A stretch of DNA of 40,318 bases from NCBI GenBank assembly GCA_046543235.1, contig JBKGZT010000004.1, positions 1 to 40,318 of the forward strand. Direction: 5' to 3'. Source of the stretch: Candidatus Acetothermia bacterium (lineage in GTDB: Bacteria; Bipolaricaulota; Bipolaricaulia; M55B111). This document shows, piece after piece, positions 18,001 through 24,000 of the stretch (its first letter is position 1; every line of letters starts with the position of its first letter). Made by a program: the position numbers.

Positions 18001-21000
18001 TCCGAAGGAAACGAATCCGACTCTTCGAGTCGGAGATCAACCTTATTTTCGGGGAAATAGGAAGCGCCAGGGCCGAGAGTTTTCAACCGTCCCTTTCTCA
18101 ACCGATAATATGAATTTATCGATGGGACCCGTCCACCCTGAATCACCGGAACCTCCTCCAACCTCCCCCGTTCCTGGGCGATCTCAACCAGGTTACCCTT
18201 TGGATCCTGTTCCTTCAACTCGTAATTTCGACTACCTTCGTCCTCTATAATTATCCCCCCTAAATCAGGTAAAGGGAGGTATACCGCACTTAGCACACCG
18301 ACGAATACGTCAACACGACCGGTCCTCGCCAGTTTCCAACGATAGGCCGTTTCCCCCTTTGTAAGCTCGCTATGATAGGTTACGGTCAGTAGGTCCAGCT
18401 CCCTGTCAACGAGGCCCGAAAATTCCTTTGCCCGTGAAACGTCCGGGGTGAGAACCAGAACTGAACCGTCACCGGCAAGGATACGGATCGATTCGAGATA
18501 ACTGGCCAGACGTTCTTTACCTGGGGAGTAAAGTGATCTTACTTCGTTAGATCCTCGAAGCCCTACTAAAGCCCTGGTCAAATCCGGATCGGGTTCTAGG
18601 GAGGCAGCTCCCTTCGGAACCGACACCTCCTCCCTTCCGACCTCGGGAACGGAGACCTCTTCAACGAACCCCTTCTCCTCCAGGCTTTTCAGCGGCGACC
18701 GTGAGCTACCCGCCTTATCGAGCAACTCCGTTTTTTCGATCGGCCCATCAGCAGTCAGCAAGCCCTCAAGGAGGGTGGCCTGTTTGGGTGCCAGGGAACC
18801 GCTGTTTTCCAAAAAGTCCCGGACTTCGTCAAACGAAGCGGTCAAACGGACGGACTTTTCGCTCCGCGGTTTTACGGAAAGATCCGATGGAACCATGCGC
18901 TTAAATACCTGGCCCAGCGGCGTAAAGGTGTTAGCCTCTAACACCCGAGCGAGCTCCAGGAGGTTTTTCTCAAGTGGTTTTTCCGAAAGAACCCCTTCGA
19001 GTCGTTTCTTCTCTCCGGGAAAAGAAGCTTCCTTTCTCAGCTCGGTTACTACGGCCCGTTCGGTTTCGCCCCGAAAGGGTACGGAACAGATCGATCCCGT
19101 AGTTATCTCTCCTTCCAAGACCTCGGGAACCAAATACTCGAACCTGTTGGGTATTGGACGGAAAACGGCTACCTCTGCGTAGACCTCCTCAGACATCGTC
19201 CCGCCAGGCCAGGTAGCTCAGGACTCCCTCGACGTTCATTTCGAGCTCGCCGAAAGGGATCTCGCTAGCAAACCGGTCCTCACGGGATTCCGATATCCTT
19301 TCGGCTATCCCTGACGCACCGAGACCGTTCGAGTGCAGACTTTCCACCTTCCTCACCCAGCTTTCGAGGAGGTCCCGATATGTATCCAGTAGGTTCGTGG
19401 GGGCATCCGCCGGTCCGAAGTGGGAAAATAAAAGCTTGGAAGGACCAAGCCCTTCCATCTTCTCCAGGCTTTCCAGGCTTTCTTCGAGGTTAAAGCTCGG
19501 TGGAGGGGTTGCGGGAAACAAACTACCTTTCAGATAAAGTCCAGCGGCGTCTCCGGTGAACAACCCACCCGATTCCCCGTCGAAGTAAACCAGGTGGTGG
19601 GGTGCATGGCCTGGCGTGGGCAGCGCAATTATCTCCCGCCTTCCGACCTCGATCGCCTGCTTGCCGCGGATCGGGTAGAGGTTTTCCTCGGGAACCGGTT
19701 TGAGATCACCGTACTGATCGAACCTTTTCCCGGTCGCCTTTTTCACGCTTTCCAGCAGGTCCGCGGGTTCCGCCAGGTGAGGAGCACCTTTCTCGTGAAC
19801 ATAAACCTTCAAGTCGGGAACTTCCTCGACGAGTCGTCCAACGGCGCCGCAGTGATCCAGATGGATGTGGGTTAGCAGTACCGCCTCGATATCAGAAAGG
19901 GATCGATTTTCTTCCTTGAGCCGGTTTACCAGATCCGGCAGGGACTTCGAAGTGCCGGGGTCCACGAGTCCGACTCCGGCCAAAAGATAACTTGAACCGT
20001 AATCCTGCCGGCCAAAGACACCGTTCCTGAGCAGGGAAACCCCCGGCGGTAAGCCGTCAGTTCTCATTTTCGTTGACCTCTCCAAGCCGGTTCTCGGCGC
20101 GCTCCAGTATTTCCCGATCGTTATCGTAGGTCACTCTCTCCAGTGCTTCTTGAAACGGGAGCCAGCTGAAATCAAGGTGTTCGGAGGAGAGTTTAACTTC
20201 ACTTTGAGGACTTACCAGGGCGAGGTAATACACCACGGTCTTATCTACTTCGATTCCGCCCCTGCTAAAGCCGTAATTGACTTGCTCACGGAAGTCGGGA
20301 ATAAACTTCTCAGGCCTGAGGCCCGTTTCTTCCGCCAGCTCCCGGACCGCGGCCTCTTTTGTCGTTTCGCCCTTCTCGAGATGGCCTTTTGGAAAGCTCC
20401 AGTGGCCCCCGTTGGAGTGCTGCAATAGAAGGTATCTTCTGCTACGGGGGGAGCGCCTCGCCGCTACTACTCCTCCCGACTTCTCCTGCTCTTTCGACGA
20501 ATGGTCAGGAGAGGTTGAGCTCATTGCCCTCGGCATCCAGCGCTTTCGGGCTTAGTCCAAGGCTCCTCAGCTCTCTGACCAACACCTTAAAGGACTCCGG
20601 AATTCCCGGCTTGGGCATCGGCTCGTCCTTCAATATAGCTTTATAAAGCTTAGTCCTGCCCTGAATGTCGTCCGATTTCAGGGTCAGCATTTCCTGAAGT
20701 GTGCTCGCCGCACCGTAGGCTTCCAGGGCCCAGACTTCCATCTCGCCGAACCTCTGGCCGCCGAACTGAGCTTTACCGCCAAGAGGTTGCTGGGTGATCA
20801 GGGCATACGGCCCCGTCGACCTCGCGTGAAGTTTCTCGTCGGCAATGTGCTCGAGCTTCAGTAGATACATGTGGCCTACCGTAATGGGCCTATCGAACGG
20901 CTCTCCCGTTCTGCCATCCCGGAGTATTACCTTACCGTCCTCGTCGGCTCCTTCGTCCAGCCCCTGCTTTTCTTGTTCCTCCTGAAGGTCCTGAAGGATC

Positions 21001-24000
21001 TCTTCCTCACCGGCACCGTCAAATACGGGTGTACTGGAATGCTCGTCCTTGAGCGAAGAAAGCCAGCCCAGATGAGTTTCAAATACCTGTCCCAGGTTCA
21101 TCCTGGAAGGAACTCCAAGTGGGTTCAGCAGAACGTCAACCGGAGTACCGTCGGGCATAAATGGCATGTCCTCTTCCGGCATTATCTTGGCAATTACACC
21201 CTTGTTGCCGTGCCTGCCCGCGAGTTTGTCCCCGATAGAAATCTTCTTCCGGGTGGCCACGTATACCTTTACCAGTTCGTTTACGCCGGTATCCAGCTCG
21301 TGCCCCCTCTTACGGGAGAACTTCTTGACCCTGATTACCTTGCCCTTGCCGGCGGTCGGAGGAAGCTTCAGCGAAGAATCCTTGACGTTCCTAGCCTGTT
21401 CTCCAAATATGGAGCGGAATATTTTTTCCTCGGGACTCGGTTCCGACTCCCCCTTCGGAGTTATCTTGCCAACCAGGACGTCGCCGGTTTCCACTTCCGT
21501 ACCCTCTCTGATTATGCCTCTCGAATCCAGGTTCTTGAGGTCTTCCTTGCTTATGTTCGGTATGTCCGCGGTGATTTCTTCCGGTCCCAGCTTGGTCTCT
21601 TCCGCTTTAACCTCGAATTCCTCTATATGAATGGAGTCGAAAAGGTCTTCCTTTACCAGACGTTCGGAAACTACGATCGCGTCCTCGTAGTTGTAGCCCT
21701 CAAAAGGCATGAACGCGACGCGAAGGTTCCGGCCCAGGGCCAGTTCACCTTCTTCGCTCGAAGAACCGTCAGCAAGCACGTCACCCTTCTCTACTTCCTC
21801 CCCGGGCGACACGAGTGGCCTCTGATGTACGAGAGTATCCTGGTTGGAACGGGTGAAGGTTTTAAGCGAATAGGTCTCGGTACTGCCGGAGTCGTTCTCC
21901 ACCTCTATCTCTTCGGCATCGACGTAAGAAACCTCGCCGGATTTCTCCGCTACTACCAGCATACCGGAATCCTGAGCCGCCTTTTTCTCCATTCCCGTAC
22001 CGACCAGAGGCGCCTCGGGGTCGACGATTGGAACGGCCTGTCGCTGCATGTTCGCACCCATCAGGGCCCGGTTGGCGTCGTCGTGTTCCAGAAAAGGAAT
22101 CAGCGACGCGGAGGGTCCGACAATTGCTTTTGGAGAGACGCCGACGAAATCAACCTCTTCCGGTGGAACCCGCCGGATGTTCTCCTGACCGGTCCTGATT
22201 TCGACCCTTTCCTCGGTAAGATAACCTTCCTCGTCTATGTCAGTGGTCGAAGGTGCGATCTTATAATTCTCTTCCTCGCCGGCCATCAGGTACTCGATCT
22301 CTCCGGTTACCTTCCCTTCTTCCACTCTCATGTAAGGGGCTTCGAGAAAGCCGTATTCGTTGACCTTGGCGTAGTTCGCCAGGGAAGTGATCAGACCGAT
22401 GTTCTGCCCCTCCGGCGTCTCGATCGGGCAAATCCTCGAATAATGCGACGGGTGGACGTCCCGGACTTCCAGCTTCGCCCGCCTCTGACTCAAACCGCCC
22501 CCGAGGGCGTTCAGTCGTCTCTTGTGGGTAAGTTCTGCCAGGGCATTCGTCTCCTCAAGGAACTGTGAAAACCGTCCCGTGTAAAAGAACTGGTTCAGAG
22601 AAGACTGGATCGGTCGTGTCGGCATCAGGTCGCGGAGGGTATCGTCGTCGTCCAGGCTAAACTTGGACAGCTTGTCTTCGGTCGTCCTAACGACCCGGTT
22701 CAAACCCCTTTCGAACGCGGAACGTGCCGCTTTCCCGGGTAAATTTACCACCTTATTTGCCAGGTGGTCCTTTTCGTCGAGAATTTCTAGGTTATCCGGA
22801 ACTTTGAGCAACAGATCCAGGGCACTAAATATATCGTTTTTGGTCAGCGCCAGAGTCTCCTCGTCCAGCCCCAGCTTGCTGTTGGCCTTGAAGCGACCGA
22901 CCTCGGAAAGAAGGTAGTTCTCCTCGTCGAAGAAGAGGCCCTTTATGTAATTCTCCATCTTGGTAGTCGAAACCCTTCCGGTCGGTCGGAGTTTTCCGTA
23001 AATAAACCTTACTGCTTCTTCCTTGCTCCGGAAATCGTCCCGCTCCAGGGTATTGCCTACGTACTCGTTTAGCAGGCTTATGGATTCCTCGGTTGCCTCG
23101 TTCAGAACCACTTCTACGTCTTCCTTCCGCAGCGTTTCCCCGGCTTCGAATATTACCTCCGAATCACGGTGGACGTCCTCGCCAAAAGTGTGGCCCACGT
23201 AACGCCGGAGATTGCTTTCCGTAACGGGATCGACCTCGAAGCTGAAGTTCGAGTAGATATCCTCCTGGTCCATACCCAGAACCCGGAGAAAAACCGTCAT
23301 GGGTACCTTGGCTTCCCTGTCGAGGTTTGCGTACAGCCTCTTCCGGTTGTCGTCGAGAACGAGCTCCAGCCAAGCACCGTAATCGGGCAAGATGTGGGCC
23401 CGATACTGGTTATTTCTCTCCGCCGTGATGTAAACCCCAGGAGCACGGGCCAGTTCGTTTACCAGAACGTTCTCCGACCCGTTTATCAGGAAAGTACCCT
23501 TCGGGGTCATAACCGGTATATCCGCCACGTAAAGCTCGCTCTCCAGCACCTGGTTATCTTCCCCGTCGTAGAGAAGCGCGGTTATTCGCAAAGGTCTATC
23601 GTAGGTCAAGTCCTTATCGGCGCAGTCCTCGACGCTTCCCCGCAGTTCACCCAGGGTGGGTGCAGTAAATTCCAGCTTAAAATCCGTCCTGCTTCCGGCC
23701 TCTACGGGTGATACCTCGTCGAAAACCTCTTCCAGACCTTCTTCAAGAAACCGCTCGTAGGACTCTTTCTGATCCTCCAATAAATAAGGAGGCTCGATTG
23801 CTTCACCGTAAGTACTGTAGTCCTGTCTTTCCCTCAAACCGTATCCCTCCTAGGGCAAGGTGTTCCTGGCTTGTTGCTTACCTGAGTTCTATTTCCGCTC
23901 CAAGCTCCTCCAGCTGCTGCTGAAGGTCCTTTGCTTCGTCTTCTTCGAGCCCTTCCTGAATGGTTGCGGGGAGATCGTCAACCAGGGACTTGCATTCCTT

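Follow-up and report, generated by a model that had tools for sequence, protein, structure and literature searches.

Known arrangements of rpoB and rpoC

Few gene neighbourhoods in bacteria are as stable as the pair rpoB-rpoC. In Helicobacter and Wolbachia the two genes are fused. Two papers (PMC12993453, PMC8046335) present the cluster tufB-secE-nusG-rplKAJL-rpoBC, as found in E. coli and Bacillus, as conserved widely or universally, and for cyanobacteria the first of these gives rpoC as split into rpoC1 and rpoC2. Like the arrangement described here, the fusion and the split are lineage-wide departures from the two-gene norm; their coding regions are contiguous, whereas here an intact rpoB (1110 aa) and an intact rpoC (1657 aa) are unlinked. 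Chlorophycean chloroplasts (Scenedesmus, Chlamydomonas) have the clusters rps3-rpoC2 and rpoBb-rpoBa-/psbF-psbL, so that rpoB lies away from the rpoC genes; the setting there is an organelle with a fragmented rpoB, divided rpoC1/rpoC2 and a scrambled genome (PMC1513399). In Candidatus Bipolaricaulota, by contrast, both genes are intact, the lineage is free-living and bacterial, and the ribosomal clusters are otherwise conserved.

Breaks in operon clusters have been treated under 'invasion then separation' and a duplication-loss (SNAP) model (Brandis 2021, PMC8046335). As in that work, concatenated transcription and translation operons are broken here. The breaks considered from it fall between operons (rpoBC|str, str|S10), although its supplementary tables may list rpoB|rpoC events; the Bipolaricaulota break differs from them in lying inside the rpoBC operon and in being fixed in a phylum (PMC8046335). 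Compared with the canonical cluster, the tRNA genes, tuf, nusG, rplK, rplA, rplJ, rplL and rpoB occur in the same order, as do rpoC, rpsL, rpsG, fusA, rpsJ and rplC from rpoC onwards. The differences are the cut between rpoB and rpoC, with the halves 45-668 kb apart in relatives carrying both on one contig; the genes NUDIX-MBL-priA after rpoB and hpf, NFACT-R, uvrD and FmdB before rpoC; and the lack of a tuf gene between fusA and rpsJ.

The rpoB array

The window analysed is the whole of contig C37 (40,318 nt), and all features given for it here are on the minus strand. The array is headed by three tRNA genes (28971..29318; Rfam tRNA matches) with a promoter-like site, TTGACA-17-TAAAAT, at 29359-29331 (11/12 consensus, as a pattern match only). 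Then follow tuf (EF-Tu, 399 aa; 27683..28882; Pfam GTP_EFTU, D2 and D3), nusG (363 aa with a NusG_add insertion; 26038..27129; Pfam NusG, NusG_add and KOW), rplK (25590-26030; Pfam L11), rplA (24889-25593; Pfam L1), rplJ (24318-24836; Pfam L10) and rplL (23878-24258; Pfam L7/L12). A 40-nt spacer (23838..23877) containing only a GGAGGG ribosome-binding site separates rplL from a complete rpoB gene (20505-23837; open reading frame and Pfam), which encodes 1110 aa from a TTG start. Six Rpb2 domains (1, 2, 3, 45, 6 and 7) lie in one frame, all over their Pfam cut-offs, identifying the product as a bacterial RpoB; it was the only match in this genome. The TTG start is conserved in six of six close relatives. 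On its upstream side rpoB has the setting of the canonical operon, directly behind rplL and after nusG-rplK-rplA-rplJ on the same strand, and the order nusG-rplKAJL-rpoB recurred in all 17 genomes from 10 other families. The rplL-rpoB spacer ranged from 1 to 369 nt in 23 relatives, and in the window a terminator scan of this spacer gave no hairpin of terminator type on the coding strand.

As the last conserved gene of the array, rpoB is not followed by rpoC. Downstream are genes for a NUDIX hydrolase (159 aa; 20057..20536), a metallo-beta-lactamase-fold (MBL) hydrolase (298 aa; 19189..20085; Pfam Lactamase_B) and priA (713 aa; 17055..19196; Pfam PriA_3primeBD). The first ATG of the NUDIX gene lies 32 nt inside the 3' end of rpoB (an overlap of 20 nt if the second ATG is used), the MBL-fold gene overlaps the end of the NUDIX gene by 29 nt, and priA overlaps the MBL-fold gene by 8 nt. 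Pfam labels and coordinates thus bear out the survey's finding that rpoB closes the rplKAJL-rpoB cluster and is followed by these three genes. No NCBIfam model matched the MBL-fold protein above its cut-off, and NCBIfam PriA models matched priA but under theirs.

Nudix hydrolases are recognised by the motif GX5EX7REUXEEXGU. The NUDIX protein (Pfam NUDIX, 76 bits) carries this box as GHLEKGETTKEAAVRELAEETGL in translation. Its best relatives of solved structure were CT771, the Aquifex Ap4A hydrolase (3i7u) and human NUDT2 (E 3e-18 to 8e-16), and no NCBIfam equivalog scored over cut-off. The likeness makes it a putative Ap4A-hydrolase-like enzyme that may act on Ap4A or on RNA 5' caps. In eight of eight close relatives, and in 13 of 17 genomes drawn from other families, rpoB was directly followed by the NUDIX gene, which overlaps or nearly abuts it in many families. 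The NUDIX gene was absent from this position in families f2, f3 and f7, so that its place after rpoB, as previously proposed, is common but not universal.

The rpoC locus

The only rpoC of this genome lies on contig C86 (24181-29154, plus strand; 1657 aa). Rpb1 domains 1-5 occur in this single frame, in place of rpoC1 plus rpoC2, and across the 148 genomes with rpoC most open frames measured about 1640-1770 aa. On the 5' side are hpf, an NFACT-R gene, uvrD and an FmdB zinc-ribbon gene (a CxxC...CxxC ribbon; TIGR02605, 68.4 bits against a curated cut-off of 31.3; Pfam Zn_ribbon_8); on the 3' side are rpsL, rpsG, fusA, rpsJ and rplC, that is, the rpsL-rpsG-fusA genes and the S10 operon on the same strand, as in the rpoBC-str-S10 concatenation. 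Coordinates and domains agree with the earlier placement of rpoC behind uvrD and a zinc-ribbon gene. The claim that rpoC heads rpsL-rpsG-fusA holds by position; against it stands a promoter-like site in the rpoC-rpsL spacer, present in all 16 genomes examined.

The order rpsL-rpsG-fusA-rpsJ-rplC followed rpoC in 15 of 16 informative loci. In the exception (G004) rpoC shares 4 nt with the zinc-ribbon gene, and the two are flanked on both sides by unrelated genes of the opposite strand. Of 17 genomes from other families, 13 had a zinc-ribbon gene upstream of rpoC. The FmdB gene was unlinked from rpoC in two f4 genomes (G023, G108), and no match over cut-off was found in two f7 genomes (G024, G048; 88-90% complete). 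The zinc-ribbon protein was considered as an RNA-polymerase-associated small subunit and rejected, since such a subunit, bound to the enzyme, should be present in all genomes.

Separation of rpoB and rpoC across the phylum

The class survey covered 151 genomes, with rpoB in 147, rpoC in 148 and both in 145 (11 families, 49 genera). The organisms are uncultured. In the genome analysed here rpoB and rpoC are on different contigs (C37 and C86) and do not form the canonical rplKAJL-rpoBC operon; since the window is a whole contig, 20.5 kb 3' of rpoB and 24.2 kb 5' of rpoC are without the partner.

Adjacent rpoB and rpoC were found in 0 of the 145 genomes. The genes were on different contigs in 141 and on one contig in four (two single-contig genomes and two long contigs), where the gaps, measured between domain matches, were 45,049, 65,238, 500,013 and 668,301 nt. 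The gap was 45-65 kb in family f4 and 500-668 kb in family f6. For 109 or more of the 145 genomes adjacency is positively ruled out, since the contig runs on for at least 1.5 kb beyond the 3' end of a minus-strand rpoB or ahead of the 5' end of a plus-strand rpoC; in the other 36 non-adjacency rests solely on the genes being on different contigs. A contig from another, independent sample (run X3, 19691-22071), belonging to the study from which the source sample may also come, spans the rpoB/NUDIX junction as well. The phylum sample includes 60 further genomes, every one of them 'same class' or closer. The larger sample upholds the claim of a split in every relative of the class and of genes far apart in two single-contig genomes, and it extends the class-wide trait to the phylum Candidatus Bipolaricaulota, because the sampled phylum contains one class only. 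The unlinking is confirmed as real: an ancient but modest oddity of gene order.

Among control loci from other phyla, rpoC was 46-1285 nt after rpoB in 62 of 63 informative cases. In 41 genomes of Planctomycetia the genes were adjacent in 33, loosened or split in five and undetermined in three. The loosened pairs were spaced 3.2, 3.5, 7.9 and 16.5 kb apart, where the median is 1.9 kb, and in genome G166 the genes were 4.9 Mb apart on opposite strands. As in Bipolaricaulota, rpoB and rpoC are separated there, by inserted genes or, in G166, by unlinking; unlike Bipolaricaulota, these are single genomes among 41 and not a fixed state of the clade. The split is therefore not unique among bacteria, and its special feature is fixation in a whole phylum.

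Promoter-like sites

Promoter-like sites were pattern matches to the E. coli consensus. Because no RNA runs carrying this DNA are listed, all transcription units are deduced from spacing and consensus matches. The rpoC-rpsL spacer contained TTGACA-17-TATAAT in 16 of 16 genomes, with at least 10 of 12 positions matching in 15 of 15 and 12 of 12 in 11; in this genome the match is 12/12 and overlaps the rpoC stop codon. Between uvrD and rpoC in family f1 (13 genomes) only two non-coding blocks were conserved, the ribosome-binding site of rpoC and TTGAAA-N17-TATAAT together with the bases after it (L004 6266-6310). A site with at least 10/12 consensus was present within 1.3 kb upstream of rpoC in eight of 17 other genomes; in most of these eight its computed position is directly before the zinc-ribbon gene. 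The spacer between the zinc-ribbon gene and rpoC in f1 is 400-800 nt long and unconserved, and may therefore hide unrecognised promoters or terminators.

In nine of 11 genomes the stretch from tuf to rpoB showed no strong promoter-like site, which fits read-through but would equally fit promoters unlike the E. coli consensus. Together the sites and spacings suggest that rpoB is read through from the ribosomal protein genes, that rpoC is transcribed from the conserved promoter upstream of the zinc-ribbon gene, and that rpsL has its own consensus promoter.

Origin of the split

The arrangement is probably best explained by a single cut that parted rpoB from rpoC in the stem lineage of Candidatus Bipolaricaulota and was inherited since, with the two halves on separate transcripts. 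The ancestral array tuf-secE-nusG-rplKAJL-rpoB-rpoC-rpsL-rpsG-fusA-S10... would have been severed once, exactly at rpoB|rpoC, and the state passed to all sampled members. The cut would have retained the old ribosomal neighbours, with rpoB behind rplL and rpoC ahead of rpsL, and created the junctions rpoB|NUDIX-MBL-priA and hpf-NFACT-(uvrD)-(Zn ribbon)|rpoC. The break was likely made either by segmental duplication and reciprocal loss or by an inversion or translocation ending between the two genes. The order in f4, with the rpoC array followed 45-65 kb on by the rpoB array on the same strand, could have been left by duplication and reciprocal loss. A zinc-ribbon gene adjoining NUDIX in the outgroups, looked for as a sign of a single reciprocal exchange, was not found.

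A single break is favoured because the junctions rpoB|NUDIX and Zn-ribbon|rpoC are shared and the trees of RpoB and RpoC are congruent. In quick FastTree trees of 31 rows, with outgroups that were the chance yield of one search, the phylum formed one clade for each protein (support 100) with the same family groupings. Several independent breaks in different families are highly improbable: the pair is loosened or broken sporadically elsewhere, as in five of 41 Planctomycetia, the gap differs between f4 and f6, and NUDIX does not follow rpoB in f2, f3 and f7, yet each of the three main lineages in the RpoB and RpoC trees has the same two junctions (rpoB|NUDIX, Zn ribbon or NFACT|rpoC) and the ancestral state is kept in none of the 145 genomes. 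It is very unlikely that a copy of one gene instead came in from a different lineage, at a new locus, and that the resident copy beside its partner was then lost. The long RpoC with insertions beside a short RpoB could hint at differing histories, and a transfer predating the last common ancestor would be compatible with the within-phylum trees. Both genes nevertheless keep their ancestral neighbours, rpsL and rplL, which points to a simple cut, unlike insertion at a random locus; the two trees also agree, and Bacillota and Synergistota are the top-scoring outgroups for RpoB and RpoC alike. That the genes are truly adjacent and the contigs broken between them or mis-joined can, for practical purposes, be regarded as refuted. 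This genome comprises 97 contigs, most relatives are fragmented metagenome bins, and the genes are on different contigs in nearly all; against this, the four contigs holding both genes separate them by 45-668 kb, the expected position of the partner is covered by contig in at least 109 genomes, the same non-rpoC neighbours recur in 10 families, and a contig of another sample bridges rpoB and NUDIX.

An adaptive retention of the break, with NUDIX (alongside beta) and the zinc ribbon (alongside beta') acting on or with the polymerase, is unlikely. The overlap or near-abutment of rpoB and NUDIX in many families, the resemblance of NUDIX to Ap4A hydrolases, a group that includes enzymes removing RNA 5' caps, and the persistence of the Zn-ribbon-rpoC pair in G004 though both flanks have changed would speak for it. 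However, NUDIX is missing behind rpoB in f2, f3 and f7, FmdB lies elsewhere in two f4 genomes and is without a match in two f7 genomes, and operon hitch-hiking on a resident promoter would explain the linkage without protein contact. The related idea that the cut created two lineage-specific polymerase partners is likewise doubtful. NUDIX, made from the end of the rpoB message, could strip 5'-triphosphates or Np4A-type caps off new transcripts, or could stop dinucleoside polyphosphates from initiating RNA chains; the small FmdB protein, made just before beta', could aid the folding or docking of beta' after the loss of side-by-side synthesis with beta. If so, Bipolaricaulota would be an example of compensation for the lost co-located synthesis of the two largest polymerase subunits.

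Under a single ancestral cut, beta would come from the distal end of a long ribosomal protein transcript, with a 40-nt rplL-rpoB spacer probably too short for an attenuator, and this transcript would continue into the overlapping NUDIX-MBL-priA genes. Beta' would come from a separate transcript, starting at the conserved candidate sigma-70-type promoter upstream of the FmdB gene, that can continue into rpsL, itself with a candidate consensus promoter. Two promoters and two ribosome-binding sites, independent of each other, would then have to set the 1:1 supply of the subunits, and the polymerase would be assembled from subunits translated on different mRNAs.

Significance

A full-text literature search found no report of the rpoB/rpoC split of this phylum, and PMC12993453 still calls the rplKAJL-rpoBC locus universally conserved in 2026. 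The split is a new form of a known operon architecture, a gene-order variant and not a new molecular system. It provides a natural experiment, in which the two genes have been separated by tens to hundreds of kilobases throughout the history of a phylum, and indicates that a functional polymerase would need neither co-transcription nor the making of beta and beta' from one mRNA. It is also a clean rare-genomic-change marker of Candidatus Bipolaricaulota. Compensating regulation may be sought at the two predicted, separate promoters and in the genes at the new junctions.

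The rpoB and rpoC Loci

The 1.32 Mb genome (G000; 97 contigs, 87% complete) of this Candidatus Bipolaricaulota bacterium contained one rpoB and one rpoC, both intact and single-copy, and the two genes were unlinked. The rpoB gene (window 20505-23837, minus strand) was one open frame of 1110 aa with all six Pfam beta-subunit domains. Directly upstream lay rplL (23878-24258, minus strand), followed on the same strand by rplJ, rplA, rplK, nusG, and tuf, with tRNA genes around tuf. The 40-nt spacer between rplL and rpoB held only a GGAGGG ribosome-binding site, after which rpoB began with TTG (23837). 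The same start was found in all six close relatives (loci L005-L011), while other families mostly had ATG or GTG at or near this position; TTG occurred again in G064 (family f11). A weak TTG start behind rplL may be a way for the genus of G000 to lower beta relative to L7/L12.

There was no rpoC downstream of rpoB in the window. Three other genes stood there: a NUDIX gene (159 aa) with its first ATG 32 nt inside the end of rpoB, a metallo-beta-lactamase-fold (MBL) gene overlapping the NUDIX gene by 29 nt, and priA, overlapping the MBL gene by 8 nt. The junction of rpoB and the NUDIX gene was spanned by a contig from another sample of the same study (19691-22071). The NUDIX protein had an intact Nudix box, and its closest solved relatives were Chlamydia CT771, the Aquifex Ap4A hydrolase, and human NUDT2 (E values 3e-18 to 8e-16); it met no curated equivalog model. 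Given its steady place at the rpoB end, a transcription-linked role is a candidate worth testing.

Other genes of the window had features of their own. The nusG gene (26038-27129, minus strand) encoded 363 aa with a NusG_add insertion domain, and like lengths were implied in all 17 other genomes from which the locus was taken. Directly after priA, a 1313-aa protein (13025-16966, minus strand) gave only faint matches (a Reg_prop repeat and a SprA-like stretch). A 644-aa EF-G paralogue with all EF-G domains (30345-32279, minus strand) lay upstream of a CBS gene, tRNA genes, and tuf. In families f4 and f6, EF-G-like matches with 32-35% identity to fusA likewise stood immediately ahead of tuf; the paralogue could be an old EF-G2 or a GTPase of the ribosome-protection type.

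The window makes up all of contig C37. The rpoC gene was located on another contig (C86:24181-29154; positions 7182-12155 of the fetched locus L004) and encoded 1657 aa with Rpb1 domains 1-5. Upstream of it lay hpf, an NFACT-R gene, uvrD, and an FmdB-family zinc-ribbon gene (95-99 aa); downstream came rpsL, rpsG, fusA, rpsJ, and rplC. The domain-1 match fell in two pieces (profile positions 3-106 and 156-312), and genomic coordinates put the insertion between them at about 190 residues; domain 5 comprised residues 873-1481 with hybrid and lipoyl-like motifs. RpoC carried two large lineage insertions against a minimal RpoB of 1110 aa. The gene identities, order, and coordinates first reported for both contigs were all borne out.

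Extent of the Split

The RpoB and RpoC domains were searched for in 151 genomes of the class (11 families, 49 genera), and their positions were compared. RpoB was matched in 147 genomes, RpoC in 148, and both in 145; the six genomes without one or both matches were listed as 61-85% complete. In none of the 145 genomes with both matches were rpoB and rpoC neighbors. The genes were on separate contigs in 141 genomes and shared a contig in four, at distances of 45 and 65 kb in family f4 and of 500 and 668 kb in two single-contig genomes of family f6. Assessed only for minus-strand rpoB and plus-strand rpoC, the stretch where the partner would have to lie measured at least 1.5 kb in at least 109 of the 145 genomes and at least 10 kb in 69; for the remaining 36, the evidence of non-adjacency is the placement of the genes on different contigs. 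The survey's finding that the two genes are unlinked throughout the class was thereby confirmed in a fivefold larger set of genomes. Every genome in a phylum-level draw (61, counting G000) belonged to this class, so class-wide means phylum-wide among the sampled genomes.

Public records of the closest RpoB relatives were titled in two ways: "uncultured Thermotogae bacterium" (loci L005, L006, L008, L009, L011, L038, and L050) and "Candidatus Bipolaricaulota bacterium" (L007, L010, and L049). RpoB relatives with either title shared 80-94% identity with the RpoB of G000, and the Thermotogae label looks like a misassignment.

Spacing in Other Phyla

The search that returned these RpoB relatives also provided a control of 69 loci from other phyla, an uneven set with many Fictibacillus, of which 63 had at least 1.5 kb after rpoB. 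The start of rpoC lay 46-1285 nt downstream of rpoB in 62 of the 63. The sole exception was a Planctomycetales bin with rpoC on the same contig, 16.5 kb separating the domain matches. Five loci from Dehalococcoidia and SAR202 (L064, L068, L071, L075, and L080) had rpoB-rpoC gaps of 0.9-1.3 kb against the usual 50-400 nt, enough to hold a small extra gene or an extended leader.

Spacing, measured as the distance between the two domain matches, was normal (1.76-2.76 kb) in 33 of 41 genomes drawn from Planctomycetia, the class of the Planctomycetales bin, and enlarged in four (3.2, 3.5, 7.9, and 16.5 kb). In one further genome a single contig carried rpoB and rpoC on opposite strands, 4.9 Mb from each other, and three genomes had them on different contigs. 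The pair was loosened or split in five of the 41 (G151:C48, G166:C1, G191:C12, G179:C1, and G183:C2), the loosened pairs having about 1-14 kb of extra sequence between the genes. These cases show that individual genomes of other groups can have a loosened or broken pair; the peculiarity of the Bipolaricaulota is that not one member keeps it.

Conservation of the New Junctions

Both loci were taken from 16-17 genomes of ten other families, in which the neighbor proteins of G000 were located by tblastn. The order nusG-rplK-rplA-rplJ-rplL-rpoB was found in 17 of 17 genomes. A NUDIX gene directly followed rpoB in 13 of the 17, its aligned start often extrapolating to about 32 nt inside rpoB. The four genomes without it belonged to families f2, f3, and f7, where its place was taken by a convergent gene (MurJ, FAD oxidase, or Na/H exchanger) or by a CitMHS transporter gene on the same strand. 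Among close relatives, the genes after rpoB included NUDIX in 8/8 loci, priA in 7/7, and the MBL gene in 5/7.

On the rpoC side, 15 of 16 informative loci had rpsL-rpsG-fusA-rpsJ-rplC downstream; upstream, 12 of 17 had hpf and the NFACT-R gene, and 13 of 17 had the zinc-ribbon gene. In G004 (family f5; L106, 7910-13188) only the zinc-ribbon gene and rpoC stood together, overlapping by 4 nt, between genes of the other strand. In place of rpsL stood a Ham1 (ITPase) gene in convergent orientation and genes for ABC transporters, and these neighbors indicate that rpoC has departed from the str operon too in f5. The zinc-ribbon gene was elsewhere in two f4 genomes, and in two f7 genomes (88-90% complete) no zinc-ribbon gene scored over the family cut-off. 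It is not an obligatory partner of rpoC, and neither it nor the NUDIX gene is a universal junction partner in the phylum.

History of the Break

FastTree phylogenies of RpoB and RpoC (17 members, 14 outgroups) each placed the phylum in a single clade with support of 100. Inner groups common to both trees were f6, f9, and f4; f2 and f3 with f8, f11, f5, f10, and f7; and f1 apart. RpoB and RpoC also had their best scores against the same outgroups, and neither the similarity ranking nor the trees gave any sign of a foreign origin of one gene. Both new junctions were found in all three main lineages. The rpoB gene retains its ancestral upstream neighbor, and rpoC its ancestral downstream neighbor. 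The simplest reading is a single cut exactly between rpoB and rpoC before the last common ancestor. Later losses would have removed the NUDIX gene in f2, f3, and f7 and the zinc-ribbon gene in f7 and part of f4, and later moves would have changed the distance between rpoB and rpoC.

Family f4 has its rpoC array 45-65 kb upstream of the rpoB array, with both on one strand; segmental duplication with reciprocal loss, which passages of PMC8046335 propose for the operon cluster, could have left this order. A reciprocal exchange would imply an ancestral array joining the zinc-ribbon and NUDIX genes; in five outgroup genomes FmdB was found in three and the NUDIX query in one, never together, the single-protein query being a weak probe for a Nudix orthologue. 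Separately, dnaA was located at 85 kb in G005 and 179 kb in G009. With replication starting at dnaA, the rpoB array would be encoded on the lagging strand; in these two genomes the origin is therefore probably elsewhere.

Promoter-Like Sites and Proposed Transcription Units

Promoter-like sites were matches to consensus scored out of 12 positions, with no function implied. Among 13 f1 genomes, only two non-coding blocks were conserved between the uvrD stop and the rpoC start. One, TTGAAA-N17-TATAAT plus the bases following it, lay immediately downstream of uvrD and some 170 nt ahead of the zinc-ribbon ATG; the second was the rpoC ribosome-binding site. The spacer from the zinc-ribbon gene to rpoC (400-800 nt) was not conserved. 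Eight of 17 genomes from other families had a site of at least 10/12 within 1.3 kb upstream of rpoC, a count made without a shuffle control, and by computed position most of these sites were just ahead of the zinc-ribbon gene or, in its absence, ahead of rpoC.

In the rpoC-rpsL spacers (loci L101-L117), TTGACA-17-TATAAT scored at least 10/12 in 15 of 15 genomes of nine families and was perfect in 11. The G000 site was also perfect (C86:29151-29179; L004 12152-12180); because its -35 hexamer overlaps the stop codon of rpoC, no terminator would fit there. As a putative promoter, this sigma-70 consensus before rpsL is conserved with unusual strictness across the phylum.

On the rpoB side, most sites of at least 10/12 fell 180-600 nt ahead of tuf (8 of 11 genomes), and consensus scans of the 11 genomes found almost none between tuf and rpoB that could mark an internal rpoB promoter. 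Rfam at the gathering threshold gave no known leader RNA in the window (five tRNAs only) and no match in C86:17000-36000. Among the sequencing runs listed as containing window 19000-24300, none was an RNA run.

Spacing between rplL and rpoB that includes an attenuator is a feature of E. coli. In the Bipolaricaulota, translation of beta would most likely take place near the 3' end of a long r-protein message that lacks this spacing and continues into the NUDIX, MBL, and priA genes. Beta' would come from a second message starting before the zinc-ribbon gene and able to read into rpsL, where the putative strong promoter would add transcripts for the ribosomal genes. If these transcription units, which we infer from sequence, are correct, the balance of beta and beta' would have to come from two unlinked promoters together with two ribosome-binding sites, and the assembly of these subunits could not depend on neighboring synthesis on one mRNA.

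Comparison With Published Accounts and Significance

Full-text literature searches, in which the supplementary tables of PMC8046335 were searched by term only, turned up no description of an rpoB-rpoC separation for Bipolaricaulota/Acetothermia or for any lineage of free-living bacteria. The only literature match naming "Acetothermia" used rpoB and rpoC as tree markers. In passages of PMC12993453 the rplKAJL-rpoBC locus is called universally or widely conserved, and the only divergences given there are insertions between rplKA and rplJL and the cyanobacterial split of rpoC1 and rpoC2. The breaks of the operon cluster described in parts of PMC8046335 fall between operons. Portions of PMC2837039 list rpoC among "weak operon" genes and nusG-rplKAJL-rpoB as a conserved cluster, with no split stated in them. 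In chlorophycean plastids, according to a section of PMC1513399, rpoB likewise lies apart from the rpoC genes.

The split is a variant of a near-universal operon that was fixed long ago and extends through the whole phylum. This gene-order trait of uncultured organisms, known from genes alone, can serve within those bounds to mark the clade and as a natural experiment in how polymerase subunits are supplied.
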